Assembly (NCBI GenBank): GCA_013239625.1
Contig: MU053156.1
Location: 498,467-547,888, forward strand
Reading direction: 5' to 3'
Length of the DNA stretch: 49,422 bases
Source of the DNA: Lama guanicoe
Taxonomy: Eukaryota
The notes under the pieces were generated by a model that was not told the origin of the DNA, searched no databases, and saw only the letters and a program-made list of their open reading frames with translations. This document shows positions 14,100-32,549 of this stretch, one piece after another. The number at the start of each line of letters is the position of its first letter. The first letter of the stretch is position 1. The position numbers were made by a program, and so were the translations under genes.

Positions 14100-15120
<1,021 letters not shown>

Positions 15121-15981
15121 TTATCAAGGGTAACTGATCCATTACATCCAGAAAGAACACTCGACTCCTGATTTCATATAGATTGAGAGGAACGTGCTGG
15201 TTGCCAGCAGTGTGTGATGATTGATCTGGTTAACTCTGAGAGGAGGAAAAGATGGATTTGTCAGTCTGGGGCTCTAGCTGGGAGAACGGGCCCTTGAAAC
15301 AGACTCACCTGGAAAATAAAACTGATGCAAAATGAATGTCAATTACCCAGTTCCAGATGGCCTGTGCACCTTCACTTTCTTGCTCTATCATTTGCTCTGT
15401 TACACTTACATAAAGTGCCCATGACAGTAATATCTGAGTGCCCTTTAGACTCTTAAGAAATGCACAATTCATTTAACTGTCCAGTGAAATAACAATCCTT
15501 GTTTCTCTTCACAAAGAGGCAGAATGGCAGCGCAACGTGGGCAGAACCTAAGTTAGAAAATCACAAACACTGTACCACATCCCAATATAATTTGTGTGAC
15601 CAGTTTTTACAAAAGGTTGAGTCTCTCACTATCACCTGGGGTAGGTCTAAATATCATAAATAAATAAATTAGCATTTTGCTCTGAAGATAAGCCTTTTGT
15701 GTAAGGTCACTGTCCAAGACTTTCAGAGTCAAGCAGAAAACCCTTTCTGCATCTAGGATTTAGCATCCACCCCCTGCTTTCACTCTACTCTGTTTATCAG
15801 GGTATCCGTTCAATCAGATGGTTTGCATTCACTGTCATCAAGGGAAAGAAGCTATTATCTGCCCGAGCTAGAACTCTTGTCTAGTTGGAGGCTCCAGCCC
15901 TAAGCTCACATTCTACCTCCACCCCTTACCCCTACTCCCCACTCCCACCTGAGGGTGTTTGGATAACTTGATAATATTAGG

Positions 15982-16074
15982 GCGTTTTGTTTTTTTAATG
16001 GAGGGACTGGGGATTGAACCCAGGATCTCCTGGATACTAAGTGTGTGCTCTACTACTGAGCTATACCCTCCCCC
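15982..16074 (-). mobile_element. tRNA-derived SINE (vic-1-like, camelid type)
   Basis: A box and B box (gggttcaatcccc on -), T-tail on +, 13-bp TSD tgataatattagg at 15969 and 16075. Confidence 0.9.
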
Positions 16075-18479
16075 TGATAATATTAGGTTTTTAAATCAAA
16101 AAGACTGTGAGGTGAGTTTCCTTGGCTGGTAACATCTGAAACCCACAGCTGGCCTTGTCTATTTCCTACAGCAACACAATGGGATTCTACTGGAAAACAA
16201 ATTGTATAGCAAGACCAGTTAATCTGGCTACACTAAAGTCCCATCAAACTGCTGAGTGGAGTCAGAACTCTTCAAACAGTGCCAAAGATAGCTTTGTGGC
16301 AAGCCACTGAATCACACAGCAGCAAAATAAAAATAAAGGATGACTGACGAACACTTTTGGGTCTCTGTCATGTACTCTGCCAAAGAGCAAAAAACTAGAA
16401 ATATTCCTCAACATATTCCATTAGGAATAGTTCAGAAATAGTTCCCACACTGGATGGGTAAATATTGCTTCAGAGGCTGGGGACTGCTGCTCCCACAAAG
16501 AGGTACCTGAAAATCTTCCTGTTTCCAAGTCTTTAAGATCCAATCATCTGATACGCTGTGCCTTTTGAGAACAAACCAAAGCATTAAGCTTGAGGAACTT
16601 AAATTATTAGAACAAAAAGTATTTTTCAATGTATTTGCTAGTGCTGAATTGGATTATTTTAAATAAATGGAAAATGTTGATGTTTCTCTATTGCACTTGC
16701 TTTGTTCTTTTTGAAGAATGTCTGTAGTAAAGACAAATAACAACAAAACAGAATATGAATGTCTTTTGCAGGTGGACTCCTAGAATTACTCAGAATCGCT
16801 CTGAAGCTGTCTTGTGTTAGCATTCTTCAAGCCAAGAGCACTCAAAGGTAATGAGTCTCTGTACATCTATTACCTAATCAATAAGAAATAGAGCCCCCCG
16901 CACTAATGAGTTGCCATCTCAGCAGAAAGACCTTTATTTTGCTTGGATTGGATTTCCTCATTAGTAAAGTAAATGCAAGAAAGTCTGATTTATCTGGATT
17001 TTTCCCCCACTGAACAAAAAGTTTATTTGGTGAACCTAGAGTTTTATTTTTCATTGTACTGTGTTTTTTAATTAAAACTGGCCAGTGGAACCTCTCTAGC
17101 CCCAAATCACTGTATGTATTAAATTTCAAGGAATCCTAAAGCAACTGGAGAGAATTTCATTTTTAGCAAACTGCAAGGCATTAAAATCAATAAATGGGCT
17201 GAAGATGCAATTAATATGCTAGAAGCCTTTAATGGAAAAAAAGGGAAATTTCATATTAACAACCATTGCTTCTCTCAGTTAAAGAAATTTCTAAGCCTGT
17301 GTTTTACTAAGTAAACCATGTAATCAGGACAATTGAACAGTAGCTGTGTTTTCATTATAGTTAACATTAATTAGTCGGTTTATTTTGGGTGTGGTTATCA
17401 TTAACTTAGAGACTTGGATGCTGTTCCCTGTCCAGCTTCTGTGTATAATTCGTAACCGAGAATGCATTCCCGGGAAGGCTTTTAATCCACCATGTTGCTC
17501 AGTAGCTAATACGAGACAAGGTTATTCCGGGTCTTGCCAGAGACCAGATTCTCCTGTAGTCACCCCCGTCAACTCCTCTTCCATAAAGATGGCAAGAATA
17601 GAGGCATTCAAAAATATTTTGACATTTATTTTGTGCTCTAAAAATACTGATTTGCTTTAGTGATTACAAACCAAGCATAAGAGACTTAAAGTGAAGTGAG
17701 ACGCCGCAAAGCCACAGGGGGCGTGAAGACGGCTTCGCCCCCCCCCACCTCCGGGCCCTGCACAGACAGCAGACTGAAGCGCAGCCCCAGGCTTTCTGAG
17801 AAGGAGACCTGTTTTCGTGTTCAGGAAGTTTGGCCTGAGGGCAGCTTCCTGGTCTAGCACACTTCTGGAGGCTTCTGGAGGAGCCCCCATGGAATGCAGG
17901 CCTGTGGACACCATCTGTGTGTCCCCCCCACTGCCTGGCTCCAGCTCACCAGCACCTCCCAGAAAAGAGCTTATATCTTTGTCTAACACCCCGATTTCTG
18001 CAGCTGCTGCCAGCGGACACCTCTGCATCACTTGCTCTGCAGGCCAGTAGGGCTTCTGCTTGTGTGTCCCCCAAGACTGTAACCAAGGAAGAAAAAGTTG
18101 TTAAACACCTACCACCCCCAAGATGCAGCAAGAAGCAACAGGCCCAGGTGCTCAGGCTCCCCATGAAAGAGGCGCGGTCATCAAAGCGCAGCCTGAGGGG
18201 CAGGCTTCCAACGAGACGCACATCTAAGTGCTGACCGGAAGCCTTTCCAGAGACCTTGGAAGGTGGGCGCCATCTCTCTACCGCACCCACAAAGCCAGTA
18301 TCTTTTGGAAGGGGGCTCTCACGTGTGTCTGGCGCCCCATTTTTTGTGTCTAGCACCACGGTTGTTGTGACTGCTGCACAGGGGGTGCTCCTCGATCTCC
18401 TGGTTCTGGAGGCCAGGGGCTTGGGTCCCACAGGACTGTAACAATCAGAGAGACAGTCTTGCCAGGACACCACCCCCAG

Positions 18480-18631
18480 TGTTACGGAAACGACAGGCCC
18501 GCCAAGAAACAAACACCACTCGAAGGGTTGGAGTACTCAGATTTATTACGCTGGCGGGCTCAGAGGGGCTTCTGCTCCGAAGCTCTGAGCACCTCCAAGA
18601 TGTGTGCATGAGGTTTTATAGGGTAAAGTAC
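18480..18631 (-). mobile_element. ERV LTR fragment (3' part)
   Basis: On -: TATAAAA near 18614-18619, AATAAA at 18542-18547, terminal ...GTAACA at 18480. Confidence 0.6.
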
Positions 18632-19297
18632 AATAGACTTACCCTATAATCCAGCAACCCCACTCCTGGGCATGTATCTGGCGGAAACTCTAATTCAAAA
18701 AGATACATACACTCCAATATTCACAGCAGCACTATTTATGATAGCTAAGACATGGAAAGATAAAGAAATTGTGGTGTGTGTGTGTATGTGTGTGTGTATA
18801 TATATATATAACAGGATACTACTCAGCCATAAAAAAATAAAATAATACCATTTGCAGCAACATGAATGGACCTGCAGATTGTCATATGAAGTGAAGTAAG
18901 CCAGAAAGAGAAAGAAAAATATCATATGATACCACTTACATATGGAACCTAAAGATAAGAGAGAGAAAAATGAACTTATTTACAAAACAGAGACAGATTC
19001 ACAGACATAGAAAACAAACTTATGGTAACTAGGAGGGAAAGGGGGTAGGGAGGAATAAACTGGGAGTTCAAGATTTATAGATACTAACTACTACATACAA
19101 AATAGATAAACAACAAGGTCCTGTTGAATAGCACAGGGAACTATATTCAATACCTTATAATAGCCTATGATAAAAAAATATGAAAAGGAATATATATATA
19201 TTCCTTTTCATATTTTTATATATATATATGAATCACTGTGCTATACACCAGAAATTAACACATTATAAATTGACTATACTTCAATAAATAAATAAAT
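18632..19297 (+). mobile_element. Younger L1 3' end nested in the old L1
   Basis: Same 3' UTR type as 12253-12984 (…tgactatacttcaataaa) with an (AAAT)n tail. Confidence 0.9.
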
Positions 19298-19702
19298 CAG
19301 ACTGCTTGAACAATCATCAAGTTCAAGAGACAGCCAAGAGCTAGGGCAAGGTTGAAGGACAAGGTTCAACTCTTGAAAGAGGCCACTTCTCCAAGACTGA
19401 GAAGGGTAACCATTTTGCCTAATACCTGGCAACAAACACAGAGAATCAAGCAAAATTATGAAACAGAGGAATATGTTCCAAACAAAAGAACAAGATAAAG
19501 CTCTGAAAAACAAAAAAGGAGACAAATATTTACCTGATTAAGAGTTTTAAATAATGATCATAAAGTTGCTCTCTGAAATTGGGAGAATAAACTTAGACAT
19601 TCAACAAAGAGAAAACATAAGACAGTACCAAAAAGAAATCACAGAGATAAAAAATACAATAACTGAATCAAAAAAACGCTACTAGAAGTGTTCAACAACA
19701 GA

Positions 19703-19971
19703 ACTTGTGGAACTAGAGGTAGCACGGCAGGTCCTTCTCAATTACCAGGGGCTCCTCCATGGGACCATACCGCTTCACCACACAGCCGTTCTTGTCAATG
19801 AGAAACTTGGTGAAGTTCCATTTGATGGCATTTCCCAGGACGCCCTTCCCCTTGGGCTGAACTTTCATCCACTTCCACAGTGGGTGGGCATCGTCCCCAT
19901 TGACACAGATCTTGCTGAACAAATCGAATCTGACGTTATAGCCAGCGGCGGACTCTGATTTCAGCACTACT
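19703..19971 (-). pseudogene. GPX4: GPX4 processed fragment (C-terminal ~85 codons plus ~10 nt of 3' UTR)
   Basis: [78 protein letters not shown]; intronless; no Sec codon region, SECIS or poly-A. Confidence 0.95.
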
Positions 19972-19982
19972 GATCAATTTTA

Positions 19983-21756
19983 CAGGAGGGCGGGGCTCAC
20001 GGCTGAGCGAGGCTCAGGGTGCAGGGGTGCGGCTGAGGCGCTCTGGGCCCTCGCGGAGCCCGCGGAGGCCGAGGGGGACCCCGAAGTGCGCGACAGCAGC
20101 TGCGTCATGAAACAGGCCCAGTCCTACTTCGGTTCGGTGAACGCCTCCTACAACGCCATCGTCGACTGCGGAAACTGCTCCAGGCTCTTCCACGCGCAGA
20201 GACTGACCAACACTAACCTCTTCGTGGTGGCCGAGAAGCCACTGTGCAGCCAGTGGGAGGCTGGCCGGCTGCTGCAGAAAGAGACTCCCTCGGACGGCCC
20301 GGAGCAATGTGAACTGGTGCAGAGACCGCGATACCGCAGAGGCCCGCACATCTGCTTCGACTACAACGCCACGGGAGATGCCCCAGACTGCGGCCGCGGG
20401 GCCTCCTTCCCGCCGTCATTGGGCGTCCTGGTGTCCCTGCAGCTGCTGCTCCTACTGGGCCTGCCTCCCCGGCCGGCCGCAGCCTCAAGTCCACGCCCAC
20501 GCCTCTCGCCGCCTCTGAGTGCTCCCTCCCTGCCCAGGCCTCCCTGCCCGTCCCCTGCTCCCCCGCCCCACACTCCCCGCCTTAGAGCTTCACCCCCTCC
20601 CTCACTGAAGGACCTGAGCACGCAGGGCCCCCAAGAGTCTGCACCTGGTGGGCAGGGAGGTGGATTCCCAAAGGAGAGCGTTTCAAGTCTTTGGCCCCCA
20701 AGCCACATCTAGCGCCTGAACTGTCGAAAGTGTCCCAAGACCCCTCATTCCCACTTGACTTACTCGCCTCTCCCCCCAGGACTGGGCCAGGGAAGACACA
20801 GTACTGGTGCCAAACCAGGCCTCCACTGCCCACCCTGCCCTGAGGCTCCGTTTGTGTGGGAGGCCTAGGTCTTGCCCCAGCTGAACTCCTCTAACCTGGT
20901 TCTTCTGCCCTACCCAGGACCAAATCTGGATTCCCTGGGAATCATGGAGGAAGTTGAGATGGGCAGTTTGAGGCCTGTGCATCCCAGCTTAAGTCCTAGC
21001 AGAAGAGAGGTCCTTGGGCAGCCCTCCTGCCTCTCTCACGCCTACAGCCACCTCTCCCTCACCAAGCTCTGCAGGTTGCAGGACAGTGACTGGCTCAGAC
21101 ACAACCCCATACACATCTGGAGCCCTGAGGGCAGAAACTGGACTCACATTAAACACATCCAGGAGGACACACACAAACACAGACGTGCACACACACACAC
21201 ACACAAACACACACATACCGTGGGGTGGGGTGGGAGCTGGGGCTCACAAAGCCTTACACAGGATGAAGTGTTGGTGGGAGGGTTGGCACATGCACACTCC
21301 ATCTCCTGCTCACCATCCGCCTCTAATCTGACCTGCAGCCCAGCTGGTCCTCCGTCTCTAAAGCTGAATGTCAAACAGTGCCAAATGCTGGGGCAAGGGG
21401 TGAAGACCCCTCTGTCCCACCCTACCAGTGTCCCCTAAATGCCCTCAGTCCACCAGGTGCTCATTGTAACCATTTCTCACTACTGTCAGGCCTTCAGTGG
21501 GACCACATGCCACTGCCTGCACCCCTCGGCAGAGGAACTCTCACCGGACATTGCCCCTTGCCTTAGCGGGGTGACTTGATCACTCCTAGCTGGGTCATCC
21601 CACCCCCAGTCTGGCCCACACTCAGGCCTGTGCCCACTTCCACACACACTCCCTTGCCAAACTGCTCCTCCCTGCTGAACACAACACTTGCACACACATA
21701 AACACATATACACACTCTGCACACACACAGGCTGGGCCTGGGCTCATAAAAAAAAA
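19983..21756 (+). pseudogene. CACNA2D2: CACNA2D2 retrocopy (delta-2 C-terminus, 3' UTR, A-tail), 5'-truncated
   Basis: [54 protein letters not shown]...[18 protein letters not shown], a frameshift, then [12 protein letters not shown] (stop 20516-20518); intronless coding part; A-run at 21748-21756. Confidence 0.93.
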
Positions 21757-24700
21757 TTAATTAAGCAAAGGGAAAGGATCAGAGATACTGAAGACAGGGC
21801 AGTGGAACTCACACAGAGTAGCAGAAACAAACAAAAAAATTAAGTGAAGATAGCTTAAGGGCTATGGGAACAATCAAGCAAACTGACATTCACATGATAG
21901 GGACCCAGAAGGATGAGAGTGAAATAAAAGGGCAGAAAATATATTTGAAGAAATGATGGCCTAAAACATCCTTAATCTGGGGAAGGAAACAAACATTCAG
22001 ATCCAGGAAGCCCAGGGAGATCCAAACAAAATGAACCCCAAAAATTTTACACCAAGAAACACTATAATTAAATTGTCAGAATTTAAAGATAGGCAATCTT
22101 AAATGAGCAAGACAAAAACAACTTTTTATGTACAAGAGAACTCCTATAAGACTATCATCAAATTTTTCAGACCAGAAGGGAGTGGCAGAATTTATTCAAA
22201 GTGCTGAAAGGAAAAAAATTCCAACCAAGAATACGCTACACAGCAAAGTTATCATTCAGAATTGAAGGAACGATAAAGAGCTTTGCAGACAAGCAAAACT
22301 AAAGAGTCATCTCCAGTAAACCACCCTTATAAGAAACTTTAAAGGGTCTTCTTCAAGCTGAAAAGAAAGGTTGATAATTTGTAATAAAAAAAATACAAAA
22401 GTATAACTCTCACTGGTAATGACAAATACATGGTAGAGATAGTGGATTAATCACATATGAAGCTGGTGTGAAGAGTAAAAGGAAGAAGTGAAAATAACGA
22501 TAAGTACACTAATTAGTTAAGTGACACACAAAATGAAAAGATATAAAATGTGATACAAAAAATGTAGCAGAGGATGTAAAAATACTGAGTTTTAGAATGT
22601 TTAAAGTTGTTATTATCAACATGAAATAGACTGTTACAAATATAGGTTGTTATATGTAGGCCTCACAGCAACCACAAAGCAAAAAATCTACAGGAGACAC
22701 ACAAAAGATAATCAAAAAGGAATCTAAGTGTCACACTAAGTAAAGTCACCAAACCACGAAGAAGAGAGCAAGAGAAAAAGAAACAGAGAAACTACAAAAC
22801 AGCCAGAAAAAAATGAACAAAATGGTAGTAAGTACATACTTCTCAGTAATTACTTTAAATGAAAATGGACAAAATTCTCCAATCAAAAGACATAAAGTGG
22901 CTGCATGGATAAAAAACGAGACCCACCTATACGCCGTCTACAAGACACTCACTTCAGATATAAGGACAAACACAGACTGAAAGCAAAGGGATGGAATAAG
23001 ATGTTCCATGCAAATGGAAACCAAAGAAAGTTGTATAGCTATACTTACAACAGACAAAATAGACTTTAAAACAAATGCTATAACAAAAGACAAAGAGGGG
23101 AATTCAATAATGATGAAGGGGTCAATCCAACAAGAAGACATAACATTTATAAATAATTATGCATCCAATATGGGAGCACCTAAATATATATAGCAAATAT
23201 TAACAGACCTAAAGGGAGAGATAGAGAGCAATATAGTAACTCTTGGGAAATTCAATATCACACTTACATTAATGGATAGATCACCCAGGCAAAAAAAATC
23301 AGTAAGGAACATCAGCCTTACGTGACACATTAGATCAGATTCACTTTAATAGCAGAACACTCCATCCAAAAGCAACAGAATACACATTCTTCTCAAGTTT
23401 TCATGGAATATTGTCCAGGACAGATCATATATCAGACCACAAAAAAGGTCTTAATATATTTTAAAAGACTAAATCATATCAAGCATCTTTTCCAACCACA
23501 ATGATATGAAACCAAAAGAAAACTGGAAAAATCACAAATATTTGGAAATTAAACAACAGGTACTGAACAATCAATGGGTCAATAAAGAAATATTAAAAAT
23601 ACCTGAGACAAATGGAAACACAACATACCAACATTTATGGGATGCATCAAAAACAGCTCGAAGAAGGAAGTTCATAGTGACACAGGCCCATCTCAAGAAA
23701 CAAGAAAAATCTCAATTCACCTAGCTAACCTTACGCCTCGAGAAAATAGGAAAAGAAGAACCAACGAAACCTAAAGTTAGTAAAAGGAAGGAAAAACAGA
23801 AATCAGTGTGGAAATAAGTGAAATGGAGACTAAAAAGATCAATGAAATTTAGAGCTGGGTCTTTGAAAAGCTAAACCAAACTGATAAACTTTACCTAGAC
23901 TCACCACAAAAAAAAAAAAAAGATAGAGACAGAATCAAATAAAATCAGAAATGAACGAAGAGATTACAACTGACACCACAGAAATACAAATGACCATATG
24001 AGACACTGTGGATAATTACATACCAATAAATTGGATAACCTAGGAGAAATGGATAAATTCTTAAAAACATACAATCTTCCCAGACTGAACCATGAAGAAA
24101 TAGAAATTATGAATAAACTAGTAAGGAGATTGAATCACTATTCCAAAACACCCCCCCAAAATAGAAGTCCAGGACAAGATGACCTCACTGGTGAAGCCAA
24201 ACATTTAAAAGAATTAATAACTATCCTTCTCAAACTCTTCCATAACACTGAGGAGGAGAGAATGATTCCAAACTCACTTTACAAGGCAGGATGACCCTGA
24301 TACCAAAACCAGACAAAGATATCACACAAAAAAAGAAAATTACATGCCAATATTGACGATAACATAGATGCAAAATCCTCGACAAAACATTAGCAAACCA
24401 AATTCAACAATATATTACAAAATTGTGCACCACGACCCAGTGGAATTTATTCCAGGGTCGCATTGATGGTTCGACATGAGCAAATCAATCAGTGTGATCC
24501 AGGACATTGACAAAATGAAGGCCAAAAATTGTATGATCATCTCTACAGATGCAGAAAAAAGCATTTGACAAAATTTAACATCCATTTAAGATAAAAACAC
24601 TCAACAAAGTGAATGAAGCTAAACTATACTATACACAAAAATCAACTCAAAATGGATTTAAGACTTGAAAGTAAGATGTGAAACCATAAAACTCCTAGAA

Positions 24701-24958
24701 GAAAACATACATGGTGAGATTTTTTACATTGATCTTGGCAATGAATTCTTGGATCTGACCCAAAAATAAGTGAAACAAATGCAAAAATAAACAAATGGGG
24801 CTACACCAAACTAAAAGCTTCTGTACAGCAAAGGAAACATCAACAAAATGAAAAGACAGGGAGAAATAAATGGGAGAAAATATTTGCAAATCATATATAC
24901 AATACAGGGCTAATATCCAAAATACATAAAGAAGTCATACAACTCAATAGCAAAAAAA

Positions 24959-25112
24959 GGAGGGGAAGGTACAGCTCAATGATAGAGCATATGCTTAATA
25001 TGCACAAAGTCCTGGGTTCAATCCCCAGTACCTGCATTTAAGTAAATAAATAAAATAAACAAAAACTTAATTATCTCCCCCCACAAAAAAGAGTGATTAA
25101 GTAAATAAAATT
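24959..25112 (+). mobile_element. vic-1-like tRNA-derived SINE inside L1 ORF2
   Basis: ggaaggtacagctcaatgatagag...cctgggttcaatccccagtacc followed by an A-rich tail. Confidence 0.85.
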
Positions 25113-25554
25113 AAAAATGTTTTAAAGTGTGCAGAGGATCTGAACATTTTTCCAAAGAAGACATACAGATGGCCAACAGGCACATGAAAAGATGTTCAAC
25201 ATCACTAATCAAGGAGATGCAAATGAAAACCACAATGAGATACCACCTCATATCAGTTATAATGACTGTAATTAAAAAAAAAATGTTGATGTGGAGAAAA
25301 AGGAACCCTTGTGCACTGTTAGTGAGAATGTACATTAGTGCAGCCACTGTGAAAAACAACATGGACGTCTCTCAAAAAATGTAAAATAGAGCTACCATAT
25401 AGTCCATTAATTCTACTTCTGGGTATTTATCCAAAGAAAATGAAAACACTGATTTGAAAAGATATTCACACCCATGTTTACTGTAGCACTGTTTACATTA
25501 GCCAAGATATGGAAACAACCTAAGTATCCATTGATGGATGAATGGATACAGAAG

Positions 25555-25637
25555 TATATGACTGAGATATTATGTTCTATGCCAGAAACTGACACAACAC
25601 TGTAAACTGACTATACTTCAATAACAAATTTAAAAAC
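25555..25637 (+). mobile_element. Very short young L1 3' tip nested in the old L1
   Basis: ccagaaactgacacaacactgtaaactgactatacttcaataa is the same terminus as at 12.93-12.97 kb. Confidence 0.75.
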
Positions 25638-26489
25638 AAGATATATATGTAAATGTATATATGTAAGGTATGTATGTAAATATATTATATGTATATAATG
25701 GAATACTACTCAGCTATGAAAAGAATAGAGTCTTGCCATTTGCAACTACATGGATGCACTTTGAAGGCATTATACCAAGTAAACTATATTAGACAAAGAA
25801 GGACAAATATTGTGTGATTTCATTGATATGTGGAATCTAAAACAGCAAAACAAACAAATCAAAACCAGAAAAAACAAAAACCAAGTTCATAGATAGAAAA
25901 AACAAACCACTGGTTGCCAGGGATGGGGGCATTGGGTGAAATGGGGGAAAGGGATGAAAAGGTGCAAATTTCTGGGGACAAAAATAAATAAGCAATAGGG
26001 ACGTAATGTACAGCATGGTGATTATAATTTATAATACTGTATTGAATATTTGAAGGTTGCTAAAAGATTAAATCTTAACAGTTCTCCCCAAAAACAAATT
26101 AAAATTAAAAAATAAAATCATTATTCTGAGAAGAGGCTCTTAGGTTATACCAGATTTTACGAAAGGGCCCATGGTGGAAAACAGTGAACACCTGCCTTGG
26201 CCTGGAGGGAGCCAACATCTAGGCTCTGCTAAGAACTCTATGGTGGCAGAGACCAAAGTAAAGAAGCCACAGTGTGAGTAACTGGGAAACAGCCCTTAAA
26301 TAAGGATAGGAACAGATATACCAAATGATTATAAAATCTTGAGACAGATTTGAAAGGCAGGACCAAGAGGACAGAGCCTCAAACGCTGTCAGCATTTTTG
26401 GATGGGTTTCAGGTGGTACTCCTTGTAAGCAGCAACTCCATTTTTCCAGGGGTGAAGGCAAAAAATTAGTATCTTTGTGATTGCCCCTT

Positions 26490-26650
26490 CTTTTGACATC
26501 ACACAGTCAATCTACTATCAAATCCTGGCTGTTCTATTTTCAAAATACATCTAGATCCTGTTCATCTCACCCAATTCCACCACTGCTACCTGGATCCACC
26601 CCACCATCATTTCTCATTCGGATAATTAAATAGACACTTAACTTCTCTTG
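26490..26650. mobile_element. L2 fragment
   Basis: aaatcctg..ttct..caaaatacatctagatcc..ccaccactgctacc..ccaccatcatttctc is typical of L2 3' regions. Confidence 0.6.
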
Positions 26651-29324
26651 CTATTTTAGGCAAGACCGGATGCATTCATACAGTTTCAGAAGCACGTGGC
26701 AGAGGCATCGTCTTGCATAAGTCTGCAGAAGTCCTCTTATGACACATCCTTTGGGTTCAAAGGAGAAATGGAGAGATAAGGGCTCTGAACATGATGCATA
26801 AAAAGTATGTACCTCAAAATAAGTCTGCCTGGGGCTGCCAGCGTTGCAAACGTTTTAAATTGTAGTAAGTCACCACGTCTCAAATGCCACTCGTGGTGAG
26901 AGGCGACAATATGAAAAGGTAAATTTTTATCGCCCGGATATGATGAGTGTCTCAGGCTGGAAGAGGTCTCCCGGGAGTTTGCTGGCCAGATGTCAGCCTC
27001 AGACAACTGGCTTAAGCCTGACCGCGCCTAGAGCAGCGGGAATCAGGTTTCCCGTGTCTGCCCTCCTTTCCTTCAGATATCGCTGTCCTCTCTGCTTTGC
27101 CAACGTTAAGTAATGGGTTCTGGCAACATGCGTCTGCCCGGGACTACTTCATGAGGCATTGGCAACGTGTGTTTCAGTTTGAAATGTCATGAGTGAGCGT
27201 CACTGTGTGATAATTATGTGAGAGCTGGGAAGCCCTTAACAGTGAGGCACATCAGAGCCCGGAAGGACCTGTACCCGTTCCAGGGAACTTCAGCCTGGGT
27301 GCAGCAACCAAAGCACTCTGGACCCAATTTGGGATGGGAATAGAGGAGGGCGTGAGGTTTCAGTCTTGAATGCAGAGTGGTCTTGGAATCTTTTAAAATC
27401 ACATACTGTTTAGGCATATTTCTGAATCTTCTGATACAGAACATTCACCCGACAGCCTTCCGGGGGCACTCCATAAAGGTGTGGTGTGCTGGAGGTGGCC
27501 TCGGGAAGGCGGGGGCAGGACTTCCCGGCGGGATGCTGATCATCTTTCCAAAGGAGGACAGACATGCCTCTGGGTAACCAAGGGTTTAATGATCAAGTCC
27601 AATGGGTTAAGAAGTGAAAAAGCTAAGCAGTGTTAGTACAGAACTGTTGTGGTTTCATACGGAAGGATTACTGCTAAATACTGCTCATCTCTTGTCTTAT
27701 TCCCTAGCCTTTCCCGCAAAATTGTAATAAATTATCTGACTGTGAGTGTGAGAACAGGATTCAGTATTCAATCCATTTCCTTTCTTCCCGTTCCACATGG
27801 CAGAGCAGAGTGGAGTCTCTCTATAGACCATAAATCTTCCTAGAGAAGTACTGGCAGTGACAAGGTGGGTAAGGAAAGCTGGAAGGCATGTTTTTGCTTT
27901 ATCCATAATTAAAGGGGCATTTGATTCCTGCTCGCTAGACTCATTTTTCATTTGGTTCAAAACTCAGGTAGAAAAAGCTAGCTGTTATATACTGGACGCT
28001 CGCAAACTCTGTACATTAGCTGTTTGATAAACAACTCCTTTAAACAATCCAAGAAAGAAAGTAGTATGTGTCCAAGAAATGTTGGCATGAATAAAGAGCT
28101 GTGATGGCTGAGAGTGAAGCAGATCCTCTTGGTTGCTTCATGGACAGAAAATGTTACTGAGGGAGTAAAACACGAAGTAGTCCTTGAAGAGAGGAAGAAT
28201 TTACACATGAGGAACGAGGGGAAGAAACAACCACATACAAGCAGTAGCATCCAAGCACCTGAACAAAAGCTTGAAGACATGAGCTTACGGGGAATACCTC
28301 ACTATGGAGCAAAATACAGTTAAGTTTGATTAACACACAGCAGGGTCTGGAAAACCAGCTCAGCCTAAGGACACTGAAGTTTGCTCAATGAAAAATAAGG
28401 AACCACTAAGGACACATCAACTGTCTCAAATGTAGTCAGAGTTTATCTTTGGATATCTGTGAAATGTTAAAGGAAGTCCTTATGAGAATGTATTTACTGG
28501 ACATGCATAGTGAAGCTGGAATAATATAAACAAAAATAACATGGCTCATGTTTAAAGGTACTGAAATTCATAAAACTGTGTTGTTTTAATATAGAATGAT
28601 CAATTTCATACAACTGAATATTATGTAGCCATTAAGATGGTGGCAGAAGAAAATGCTGAAGATATGATAAATATTAAAAGCTGATTAAAATATTAATTAG
28701 AGTAGAATCTCAGTTTTTTGAAAGAAAAGAGAAGAAAGAAAATACATGTATATGTGTATATAAATGCAACAATTGAATATGGAAAAATATAAGATGATTT
28801 TTTCTGGGGTTAATCTTATGATCAGTTTCTTCTGTTGTTTTCAAATTCCCCATGAGTTCATAACGCTGGAACAGCTTGTGCAACACTCTTCAAGGCACAA
28901 AGAACTACTAGTTTAAGAGCCATTTTTATATCTGATTTTGGATGCCAGTTGATGCCTTTCTTACTACTATATATTTCTAGCAACTCCTGTAGGTATATAT
29001 TAGTGATCGTAGTAGAAAAATGATGGCTTACATGCATTTATGCAGTGCTTTATAACTGATACACATTTTCAGGTGGCACACAATGACTCCTAGGCCACTG
29101 TGTATATTTGGCTCCATGCCAATAACCAACCATGTGCTTGAAGAAATTGTATTCCAGAGAAAAATTCACATCTCATACAAATACTTCCTTTCATGTACCT
29201 GTGAAACGTGGGCTTTCCCAGAGATCATGGCCCAATGGATTTTATCCGTGTAAGTTAAGAACCCTGTTAATATCAAATTATTGCTAAGTCCTTGAAAGTA
29301 ACAAGGAATATGGTGCAAAGGGCA

Positions 29325-29535
29325 AGGCTCTGGGGATAGAAATATAGAGATTAAATATGAATCTAGATATTTCTAACTTTTGATAGCTGTATGACTTCGG
29401 GCAACTTCTCTGAGCTTCAGTTTTCTCATCCATAAAAATGTGGGGAATAATTCCTATTTTATAGGATTTGTGTGTAGATTGAATTAAGTGTTATAAGCAA
29501 AATATTTAGCACAACTTAGGAGCTCAAACAAACCA
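29325..29535 (+). mobile_element. MIR
   Basis: Core gctgtatgacttcgggcaac..ctctgagcttcagttttctcatccataaaa. Confidence 0.75.
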
Positions 29536-30089
29536 TTTCTATTCCCTTATTCTGCTGAGAATAGAGACTGATTTAGAAAATCTATACCTGACAGCTCATT
29601 GATTAAAAGAAACACCCCAAATCTGTAAACTGGGCCATTAAAACAACAAGGCAATGATATAAATACAATTATTTTTATTGAAGGAGCCAAACTGGTTATA
29701 ACCTTTGGAATTCCCACATGCCTGTTTTTAACCAATATTGATATACAGTCATACAAAAAGTATTGTGTCATTTTAGGGTCCTGATTAATCTTTCTATCTC
29801 TAATTAAGGGGAAAAGATTTTATTTGTGCCCAAGCACCCTATTGCTTAAGGATGATGAAATGATGCCAAACGTTGAACTGAAAAATGTAAAATTTAAATA
29901 TTCAGATGGTTGCCAATATCCTTAGAAGTCTTGAGTGTTAATTAAACACCTGGAGGCTTAATAGGATTTCTTTTCTTTTCTTCCTATTTGGTCTGAAATT
30001 TTGGTCCACATACCAATAAACTTGAGTTTAACTATGATCTGTTTTGATGAATAGTGTTCTAACATGCTGTTTTCTGGCTTAAAAGAAAA

Positions 30090-30640
30090 TTTAACACCAT
30101 TGATTTTTGAAAATCAGTTATTACGGATAAAGATCCTTGGTTGATAGATGTAGTTTTACCTTTAGCACTTTGACTATGTCACCCGACTTCCTTGTGACCT
30201 TTCTTGTTTCTGATGAGAAAACAGCCACTGAACTTAAAGAGAGACTCTTTATACGAGATGACTTGTTTTTCTCTTACTACTTTCAAGCTTTTCACTGTAT
30301 CCTGGGCTTTTAACACTTTGACTTCACTCTCCCATGGCAGAGCAGCCAGGGGAGAGCGCTCCCGTGAGGTGGGGACAGAGGCAGAAGGACAGGTTGTGGC
30401 TCAAACACCAGACTTCACGATTCTCAGTGATGTGGGAGGTTTTTCTTGGGTGACCGTTTCTTCCTTTGCTACATGTCCTTGTGAGAACCTCCAGGGGTGT
30501 CAAATGCCTGATTTCTTTAATACCTCTATCAAGTGAAATTGTTGTTTTAGGGGGAGGGGGTCTGCCAAGCTCATCGTTCTGCCATTCTGGAAACCCCAGC
30601 TCCCATGATATGGCCTCTTCCTTGTGAAGGAGAAACAGAC
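30090..30640 (-). mobile_element. Old L1 fragments (ORF1 / 5' region)
   Basis: ctttagcactttgactatgtca…gtttctgatgagaaa…ctttcaag resembles antisense L1 ORF1. Confidence 0.55.
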
Positions 30641-30924
30641 CACGAGCCATAGTGTGTCGTGTGACATATCATGTCATTAGTTTTGCATTGAGTTTTTTTC
30701 CTGCTATTGACGTGTGATCGCATTAGGCCTTGCTTTATTTTGGTTCATGTTAATAGCTCACACTCCTGAATTTTTTTTCTCTCTGAGTTATATCTAGAAT
30801 CTATCATTGGCAAGACTTCTCACTTTCTTCTGCCAAGACTGTAATTGCTATGCCTTCCTCGCTAGCTTCCGCCCCCCTAAGAGAGCGGTGAGTCCTGCTC
30901 ACACTCCCCGTCTGCACAACTCAG

Positions 30925-31095
30925 CTTCGCTGTGTAGACACAGTGTGATCTTTGGAAATCTATTAGCTTCTCTAAAAATAGATGTCTTCACCTGCAAAGT
31001 GGAGTTGATATTACTGATAGCTACAAGGATTACTGTGAGGATGAAATGAGGTGAAGTGTTTAGATCATGTCTCGCACACAGAAAGTATCACTAAG
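30925..31095 (+). mobile_element. MIR
   Basis: gtgtgatctttggaaa…cttcacctgcaaagtggag…tgtgaggatgaaatgag. Confidence 0.65.
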
Positions 31096-32549
31096 CATAT
31101 ACGAAGCCCTTAGTCAGGTCTGGATGCTGAGATGGACAAGAATGTGATACATCATCATGGGGGGGGCTATTTCCTATAAAAACAAATGATTTAATCATAG
31201 AAGCACATGTGCTTAAAACATACCCATCTCTACACATAATTATGTACAATGAGAAAAAGGTAAAACTAAAAATCAATGACTGAAATAGTCACTATGGTAG
31301 ATTAAACTGGTTTTAGACTTATTACACAAAACGTGGCTGTTTTTTCATCGTCTTTCAACTTGAAATATCTCGAATGCATACACAACTTTTCCTCCATCTG
31401 TTACCAGCCTATTCTCAAGCCGATGTTAATTAAACAATCTTATCTGTTGTCAGCATATATCAGAAGAAGAAATTACTTCTGATTTTGTCAAGAAAAGTTT
31501 TATCCAGGCTTCCCAGGTCTGAACCCCTACCATGCCCTCTGTATTGCCATCTCCATGATGTAATCAGACATTTTATTTGTTGAATCAACTGGGTACATGA
31601 AGTACTTGGACACGTGTCTAAAGAATGTGCTTATACAACCTGGGTAATCACTTCAAATCAATGTTAGGTTCATATTTCTCTTTATACACTTGAAGTTCTA
31701 ATGCTTACAATATAAGCAGCAGCATACATCTCTTGGCTAGGAATCCATTCAGGTTGGTAAAGTGTGAATTTTGCTCATTATTCTTAAGTATATTTGGTGT
31801 AAAATCTTGGCGCCTCTCTCTAGCAATAAAAGGAATAACATATAATATTTCCTAATTTCTTACAAAAACAATCTGTCTAGAAATTATGCTTCCTTGTTCT
31901 TTTAATGTTTTTATGAAAGAATAGAGAAGAATATGACATAGGTCTATGACTGAGAGGTCTCAATAAATTTCATCCTTTAACTTTTCTCCCAAACTTTGAA
32001 CCAACTATGCAAGAAGAAAAGCCAGGTGAGAAAATTAAACTGTTTCTTTTAGTTTTGATAACACTGATATGGAGAGTGTGAATTATGTCTGTGGACAAGA
32101 CTGATATAAGGCACATTTGAGCCCCCAGATACTAAATGTAAGTGTTGGGCCAAAGTTGGTGGAGCCCTGGAAAACTGAAGGCTTCCTCAGTGAGGGACCT
32201 ACTCAGTGAACCTCAGGGAGGGATGGACCAGGAACAAGGCCTGGCCCCGAGAATGGAACTGGGTCTGCTCCTCTCCCGCTTCCTAAAACTAACCCGGATT
32301 CCTGCAAGTGAGACATCTACGTCCAGATCAATTGAATTTGCCCTGGTGACCAACACAGTTACTGGTTCCTGCCTAGGGCTCTATGTCACAGCCACCTACA
32401 TCCCTCATAATCAAAGGCCTTTTTCCTTATCTTATTCACCTCCTTCCCTTTTGTTAGAACTCTGTTTCTTTTTTGAAGATCTTAGCCTTTTTCAAAATGA
32501 AACTTATGTATCATATTTAAACATATAAAGATAATAAACATTTTTATAG

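Follow-up and report, generated by a model that had tools for sequence, protein, structure and literature searches.

The window analysed here is a 49,422-nucleotide stretch of a 2.05-Gb mammalian assembly of Lama guanicoe (G000:C243:498467-547888), and all positions below follow window numbering. On its plus strand lies an old, A-rich L1 retrotransposon whose open reading frame 1 (ORF1) is interrupted by a GC-rich insert of 2053 bp, spanning 19704-21756 and composed, in order, of an antisense GPX4 fragment, an 11-nt filler, a sense CACNA2D2 fragment and a run of nine A. Both gene fragments have lost introns, as expected of copies made from spliced RNA. Genome-wide comparisons and the anatomy described below come from one assembly, in which a paralog on contig C6062 provides the empty-site comparison. 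A preliminary description of the locus had placed the break in the host ORF1 at about 19702 and its resumption at about 21757-21780; the last L1 base is now set at 19703 and the restart at 21757, and every element reported in that description was found in its place. The features are as follows.

18797..19703, plus strand: left flank, 5' part of the old L1 ORF1, colinear with the paralog on G000:C6062 (18797-19707 aligns at 87%); ends ...TTCAACAACAGAA
19704..19971, minus strand: GPX4 retro-fragment, comprising the last 80 codons, the stop and 9 nt of 3' untranslated region (UTR); parent gene at about 552345-552965 of G000:C2899
19972..19982, no strand assigned: AT-rich filler of 11 nt, GATCAATTTTA, at the head-to-head junction; no identifiable template
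19983..20056, plus strand: CACNA2D2 part 1, roughly 72 nt making up the 3' half of a 138-nt intron that was kept; start ambiguous between 19983 and 19985
20057..20518, plus strand: CACNA2D2 part 2, coding sequence of the last four exons with three introns gone; original TGA at 20516-20518
20519..21747, plus strand: CACNA2D2 part 3, first 1229 nt of the 3'UTR; ends ...GGGCTCAT, where the parent goes on CTTCATTC
21748..21756, plus strand: run of nine A, templated by neither parent nor target; the last one or two A could be a minimal target duplication
21757..22302, plus strand: right flank, L1 ORF1 resumed, starting TTAATTAAGCAAAGGG... and carrying the RRM and dsRBD-like domain (21761-24958 aligns to the paralog at 92%)

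Anatomy of the insert and its host L1

The left L1 flank ends ...CAACAGAA at 19703, and the element restarts with TTAATTAAG at 21757. Downstream of the insert, Pfam matches on the plus strand mark the ORF1 RRM (21965-22102, E 7.4e-5) and the ORF1 dsRBD-like domain (22150-22302, E 5e-17), which places the break point within the ORF1 region upstream of the RRM. Twelve more open reading frames of the L1 body (22744-25817) gave no match in Pfam. Between the GPX4 and CACNA2D2 pieces there is no L1 sequence, only the filler, in agreement with the earlier statement that no host sequence separates the two cDNAs, and neither piece carries a target-site duplication (TSD) of its own.

The left piece, 19704-19971, is antisense GPX4. 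It matches GPX4 chains in the PDB with E 6.9e-51 over the last 80 residues, up to the final residue, other glutathione peroxidases in the PDB reaching E 1e-18 or weaker for the same GPX4-like stretch; the minus strand of 19713-19973 encodes these C-terminal 80 residues and matches Pfam GSHPx (E 5.6e-8). The parent gene, complete with introns, is located on C2899 of the same genome. The copy consists of four exon pieces (19704-19745, 19746-19805, 19806-19830 and 19831-19971) joined exactly at GT-AG boundaries, with all three spanned introns (102, 158 and 82 nt) removed. Homology extends from 19971, 9 nt inside an exon, to 19704, 9 nt past the TAG stop; beyond this end the parent reads GTGCGCC whereas the window reads L1. 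No T-run is present at the left edge, and the piece is therefore without a tail, much as the preliminary description had it (antisense, intronless, ending about 10 nt past the stop, no poly-A). Genome-wide, the GPX4 piece gave four matches, confined to the window and the exons of the parent, and no further copy. GPX4 is abundant in testis.

The right piece, 19983-21747, is sense CACNA2D2, with an intron-bearing parent on C4216 of the same genome; the plus-strand frame 19942-20712 matches Pfam VGCC_alpha2 (E 1.9e-41) and named CACNA2D2 orthologues. Homology begins at 19983-19985 inside a 138-nt intron, of which about 72 nt are kept up to the CTCGCAG acceptor; this retained part matches the parent locus (L006, reverse-complement 798-868) just upstream of the acceptor. 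The other three of the four spanned introns (108, 87 and 118 nt) are removed, giving exon pieces at 20057-20183, 20184-20290, 20291-20373 and 20374 onward. A 3-nt deletion and a 4-nt insertion disrupt the frame of the copy near the C-terminus. At 21747 the parent continues CTTCATTC and the window has nine A followed by L1. Neither AATAAA nor ATTAAA occurs within 45 nt upstream of the copy end; in the parent, AATAAA and ATTAAA are found in the 3'UTR at +308 nt and +640 nt beyond it, respectively. The retained intron and the end inside the UTR indicate that the template was not a mature, normally polyadenylated mRNA; what was copied was an incompletely spliced RNA whose end lay within the UTR and carried a short stretch of A. 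The earlier account of a sense CACNA2D2 cDNA with an A-tail is upheld for its orientation, its cDNA nature and its A-run, and is amended in two respects: the first ~72 nt are intronic, and the A-run lies away from the usual 3' end of the gene.

Among 77 genomic matches to the CACNA2D2 piece, one is the window itself, four are the parent pieces and 72 fall on a (CA)n tract; no further genomic copy besides the parent was found. This (CA)n-rich tract occupies 21160-21215 of the 3'UTR copy and shows a 4-nt length change relative to the parent. Predicted goat and donkey CACNA2D2 isoforms (P0001 and P0002) read through the same short intron (..AEALWALA, then DPAEAEG), a hint that other species, too, have transcripts or gene models that retain it. 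The parent locus also contains a tandem repeat of ~125 nt (L006, reverse-complement 554-680 and 714-840) that extends from the last part of a small exon into the next intron, just upstream of the intron retained in the retrocopy. A chimeric transcript arising from a GPX4 retrocopy within a CACNA2D2 intron was considered and rejected, the parent intron being 138 nt long and without GPX4 sequence.

The central junction is the only one with non-templated filler, and the outer junctions are clean. The linker of about 11 nt noted before is exactly 11 nt, GATCAATTTTA at 19972-19982, and matches neither parent. At one mismatch or fewer, the only candidate source in the window is an unrelated site at 28598; at two mismatches or fewer, both parent loci together contain one unrelated match; and words of 7-9 nt from the filler gave scattered matches (e.g. 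one of 9 nt at 22043, within the L1 flank), about as often as chance predicts for AT-rich words. One idea, that AATT..TTA within the filler descends from a TSD of the right flank AATTAATTA, now decayed and belonging to CACNA2D2 alone, was rejected because it requires a 2-nt gap, lies on the wrong side of GPX4 for twin priming and still demands a second insertion at the same base. The filler is also crossed by a 256-codon open frame (19942-20712, plus strand) that links antisense GPX4 to the CACNA2D2 C-terminal region. For its 256-aa product no near-identical entry was found, the best match, 88% identity over 51% of the query, being to true CACNA2D2 fragments, and an exact 45-nt junction word had no match in metagenome contigs; the frame is most likely incidental.

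A filler of this kind could mark a jump of the polymerase, and the insert could then stem from a single run of reverse transcription that switched, at the 5' end of the CACNA2D2 RNA, onto a free GPX4 minus-strand cDNA, followed by joining of the left end. A switch of L1 reverse transcriptase to another nucleic acid is the accepted origin of chimeras whose parts share one orientation (PMC13174262, PMC1920257). At this locus, however, the switch would need a spliced GPX4 cDNA to be available beforehand as a DNA template, the chimeras attributed to switching in PMC13174262 are described as same-orientation, and the clean left junction would have to come from lossless end joining. We regard this route as quite improbable.

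The empty site and the spread of the insert

The target before insertion can be read from related L1 copies. With the left flank as query, 29 other L1 copies were found, about 24 of which, counted by eye, run uninterrupted across the homologous point (...CAGCAGA, then CTAGATGAAGCAG...). One of them, on C6062 (L017), shares 87-90% identity with both flanks, the other copies about 72%. An inverted segmental duplication of at least 16 kb is present here, in which window positions 15118-31511 are colinear with G000:C6062:218500-233391 at 87-92% identity, and the sole large gap in this alignment is the 2053-bp insert. In the paralog the sequence is CAACAGAATTGGTTAAGC; in the window CAACAGAA is followed by 2053 bp and these by TTAATTAAGC. 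At the site itself the paralog has CAGAATTGG and no A-run, and the uninterrupted target sequence is CAACAGAATT....

Comparison of the junctions with the paralog and the 29 L1 copies establishes that no target base was lost and that any duplication is at most 1-2 A: a TSD of 0-2 nt (A or AA) hidden in the A-run. No obvious TSD had been reported before, and the alignment of the flanks proposed at that time, carried out here against the paralog and the L1 copies, returned no deletion and no microhomology on the left, where the target end (...CAGAA) shows neither microhomology nor complementarity to GPX4 mRNA downstream of the start point of the copy (GTGCGCC). On the bottom strand the site has the sequence ...CTTAATTAA/TTCTGTTG; taking AA as a TSD makes it AATT/CTG. 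Across the duplication as a whole, the window copy is GC-richer than its paralog (204 vs 82 and 124 vs 69 weak/strong asymmetric differences).

The occurrence of the insert was assessed with 230 words sampled from 19600-21900 in the 24 public sequencing runs listed. Twenty of these runs, from eight studies and under five organism labels, hold 0.90-0.96 of the words, and the insert sequence is widespread among close relatives. As few of the sampled words cross the junctions, a word share of at least 0.90 is no proof of contiguity, which rests on one assembly and on the exact colinearity of the flanks with the paralog. This bears on the question of whether a chimeric contig has wrongly joined transcript-like sequence to an L1. 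The use of one assembly leaves room for such an artefact; against it, the word shares in the 20 runs include the retrocopy-specific parts, the 38 substitutions and several indels relative to the parents do not fit cDNA contamination from the same animal, and the flanks match the paralog exactly in order on both sides. An assembly artefact is very improbable.

Proposed repair of one break by priming on two RNAs

The reading that we favour, with confidence a little above even, is one event at one break, in which each DNA end primed reverse transcription on a different RNA and the two cDNAs were joined head to head, i.e. an endonuclease-independent form of twin priming with two templates. In this scheme, a single chromosomal break in the old, already duplicated L1 ORF1 would have been repaired by one insertion. 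The right DNA end (bottom strand) would have served as primer on a short-A-tailed CACNA2D2 RNA with three introns out, one short intron in and its 3' end in the UTR; the left end (top strand) would have served as primer inside a fully spliced GPX4 mRNA, 9 nt past the stop. An L1-type reverse transcriptase would have copied both, the cDNAs halting at 1.77 kb (CACNA2D2) and 0.27 kb (GPX4), and their free 3' ends would then have been joined head to head by end joining with 11 nt of filler, before the second strands were filled in.

The geometry of the locus is what recommends this scheme. Both pieces border the target with the side that corresponds to the RNA 3' end, and their RNA-5' sides come together in the centre; dual priming permits no arrangement other than this head-to-head one, and random capture would give it as one of four possible combinations of orientation. 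The A-run borders the target where first-strand priming would place it, the only filler is at the central junction, where this scheme puts end joining, and the paralogous empty site lacks both pieces together, with no base lost. As in twin priming, an inverted segment stands next to an A-tailed sense segment and their RNA-5' sides face one another; a common RNA source, also a feature of twin priming, is absent, the pieces mapping to C2899 and C4216. Of the features of pseudogenes made by target-primed reverse transcription (TPRT), the locus has intron removal and lacks a tail at a poly(A) site, a TSD and a TTTT/A site. It shares with endonuclease-independent and class-2 insertions the lack of a TSD, of an endonuclease site and of a poly(A) signal, together with non-templated junction bases, and departs from them in its nine A, its intact target and a left junction without microhomology. 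With no TSD, no TTTT/A, no microhomology to GPX4 and an A-run away from a poly(A) site, the endonuclease-independent, break-repair form of twin priming is preferred over the classical one. The preliminary description had proposed one twin-priming event on two cellular mRNAs; the geometry of the locus, the clean outer junctions and the empty paralog speak for it, the missing classical L1 marks speak against its classical form, and the proposal is partly supported.

Several observations weigh against a single dual-primed event. The TSD is 2 nt or shorter, not the 7-20 bp of classical TPRT or twin priming (PMC1920257), and the implied bottom-strand nick, TTAA/TT or AATT/CT, is a misfit to 5'-TTTT/A-3'; the TSD range and the consensus are the values given in PMC1920257 and PMC5110952. 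The left primer end shares no microhomology with GPX4 mRNA. No polyadenylation site coincides with the 3' end of the CACNA2D2 copy, the parent UTR running on for at least 640 nt, and normal polyadenylation does not account for the nine A. In overall divergence from its parent, GPX4 (minus strand; 10/268 substitutions plus a 2-nt deletion) exceeds the whole of CACNA2D2 (plus strand; 28/1736 substitutions and several indels), 3.7% vs 1.6%, with p = 0.028, or p = 0.12 with stricter counts (GPX4 was counted twice, as 10/268 and, in a stricter local alignment, as 8/263). Against the 3'UTR part of CACNA2D2 (10/1240) the difference is larger, with p = 0.0009; taken at face value, the gap argues for different ages of the two pieces. 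Finally, a single event is deduced from the arrangement and was not observed, and the word shares of at least 0.90 do not prove contiguity.

The divergence is also uneven inside CACNA2D2. Its first 525 nt carry 18 substitutions (3.4%) and its last 1240 nt carry 10 (0.8%; p = 0.0002), and GPX4 does not differ from the neighbouring CACNA2D2 5' part (10/268 vs 18/525, Fisher p = 0.84). Five of the ten changes in GPX4, as well as its deletion, fall within 42 nt of the central junction, and on both sides of that junction changes and small indels are densest beside it. Divergence tracks how far a sequence lies from the junction, or its GC content, and not which piece it belongs to; since it follows position, it is compatible with equal or different ages. 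A comparison of each part with its parent gene had been suggested beforehand as a check on common age; its outcome is divided, GPX4 equalling the adjoining part of CACNA2D2 and the whole-piece comparison differing.

These numbers bear directly on two independent insertions at the same spot, the second landing exactly at the L1 junction of the first. The nominally unequal overall divergence (p = 0.028) speaks for such a history, and without TSDs a single origin is unprovable. It would nevertheless require two non-classical events at one base pair with the target unchanged, one of them a GPX4 insertion with neither a tail nor a TSD of its own, and the spread of divergence inside CACNA2D2 is greater than that between the pieces, GPX4 matching the part beside it. 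Two insertions are improbable, and we retain the single dual-primed event.

The substitutions near the junction are themselves unusual. In the CACNA2D2 5' part (19985-20510), 10 of 18 changes are A>G from parent to copy, compared with none of the 10 in the 3' part (p = 0.004), and weak-to-strong outnumber strong-to-weak changes by 15 to 1; the cluster is absent from the 1240 nt of 3'UTR. The nonsynonymous changes can be polarized with seven orthologous proteins, including that of Camelus bactrianus: at nine of ten nonsynonymous sites all seven have the parent residue, and at the tenth five of seven have it and none has the residue of the copy. As the orthologues carry the parent residues, the nonsynonymous changes arose in the lineage of the copy. 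An exception is the C-terminal R/H difference at 20508, where the parent in the assembly encodes ...ASHRL and the retrocopy and five of the seven orthologues keep R; this is a CpG change in the parent lineage, after copying.

Editing of the RNA by ADAR was considered for the A>G excess and is poorly supported: the 5' neighbour is G at five of the ten sites and C at four, and A>C, T>G and T>C changes are also present. ADAR disfavours a 5' G. Regional GC-biased conversion may be one explanation of the cluster, given the GC-richer window copy of the duplication, and error-prone fill-in from the junction may be another. A more specific version of the favoured scheme, which we put forward tentatively and hold to be rather doubtful as a whole, is a germline-fixed dual-template priming at a spontaneous break without L1 RNA, in which the CACNA2D2 template was nuclear, intron-retaining, internally ended and oligoadenylated, and the junction-centred mutation cluster came from error-prone fill-in.

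The most serious competitor of dual priming is the joint capture, by non-homologous end joining at a spontaneous double-strand break, of two pre-made free cDNAs, one of GPX4 and one of CACNA2D2, that is, a class-2 templated-sequence insertion. The lack of a TSD, an endonuclease site and a poly(A) signal, the 3' truncation of both RNAs and the presence of a filler all agree with capture; class-2 insertions are described in similar terms, with spliced cDNAs among their templates, in PMC5110952, and PMC1920257 mentions other cellular RNA fragments at non-classical L1 insertions. Capture is less apt to give two exact target junctions without a microdeletion and a filler confined to the point where the two cDNAs meet; the A-run lies directly against the target, priming predicts the head-to-head orientation, and class-2 events are described in PMC5110952 as having no A tracts. 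We consider capture unlikely.

Relation to known systems

Related cases are in print, and the locus is best seen as a clean natural example of moderate interest, not as a new principle. Evidence for twin priming on a second, different RNA has until now come by inference from L1 chimeras, and from cells over-expressing L1, where unresolved intermediates with ends ligated elsewhere were seen. If the favoured reading is true, this reaction is also completed in the germ line and can work without L1 RNA and without an endonuclease-type site. On the more specific version set out above, retrotransposon reverse transcriptase would patch germ-line breaks with whatever RNAs are available, leaving a recognisable mutational footprint. 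Head-to-head retrocopy pairs with clean outer junctions, a central filler and no TSD provide a signature that can be searched for in genome surveys. Being a single locus, the present one serves as a well-documented example. No heritable head-to-head insertion built solely from two cellular mRNAs was found described in the open-access papers searched, and the supplementary tables of a published L1 chimera catalogue could hold similar cases.

L1 twin priming, reportedly introduced by Ostertag and Kazazian in 2001 to account for 5'-inverted L1 insertions, shares with this locus two reverse-transcription reactions from the ends of one break, an inverted segment beside a sense, A-tailed one, and the joining of the cDNA ends. 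It differs in that two unrelated cellular RNAs were used here, with no TSD of 7-20 bp, no TTTT/A and an 11-nt filler instead of microhomology. Buzdin-type chimeric retrogenes are said to form by template switching and to have parts in the same orientation, one poly(A) tail and one pair of TSDs; they likewise combine copies of two cellular transcripts in one insertion, whereas the copies here stand head to head without a TSD.

The chimera catalogue (PMC13174262, Cell Genomics 2026) attributes antisense tRNA, 5S, U5 and mRNA segments to twin priming initiated at the opposite break end, and includes 27 5S/L1 insertions, 20 of them with TSDs of 7-17 bp and 14 at an endonuclease motif. These chimeric LINE-1 insertions, like the insert at this locus, have a second RNA copied in the opposite orientation beside the primary insert, and the antisense mRNA segments reported there lack first exons. 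Their primary A-tailed template is L1 and most bear TPRT marks, and neither holds here.

In a preprint on L1-expressing human clones (bioRxiv 10.1101/2024.12.14.628481, version of 2026-03-04), the reciprocal ends of one L1-induced break were extended on different mRNAs, one end starting from within a 3'UTR without poly-A, and the authors liken this to twin priming. Under the favoured reading, the present locus shares this use of a different mRNA at either end of a break. In the clones, the ends were ligated to distal DNA, as translocations, in cultured somatic cells with forced L1 expression; here, they are joined to each other in a heritable insertion present in many animals.

RNA-derived patches without a TSD are known from the endonuclease-independent and class-2 insertions of PMC1920257 and PMC5110952. 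They resemble the present insert in the absence of a TSD, the non-consensus site, the 3'-truncated templates and the non-templated bases, and fragments of other cellular RNAs are sometimes co-inserted there too. They are usually accompanied by a target deletion and junction microhomology and have no A tracts, whereas the insert described here left its target intact, shows no such microhomology and ends in nine A.

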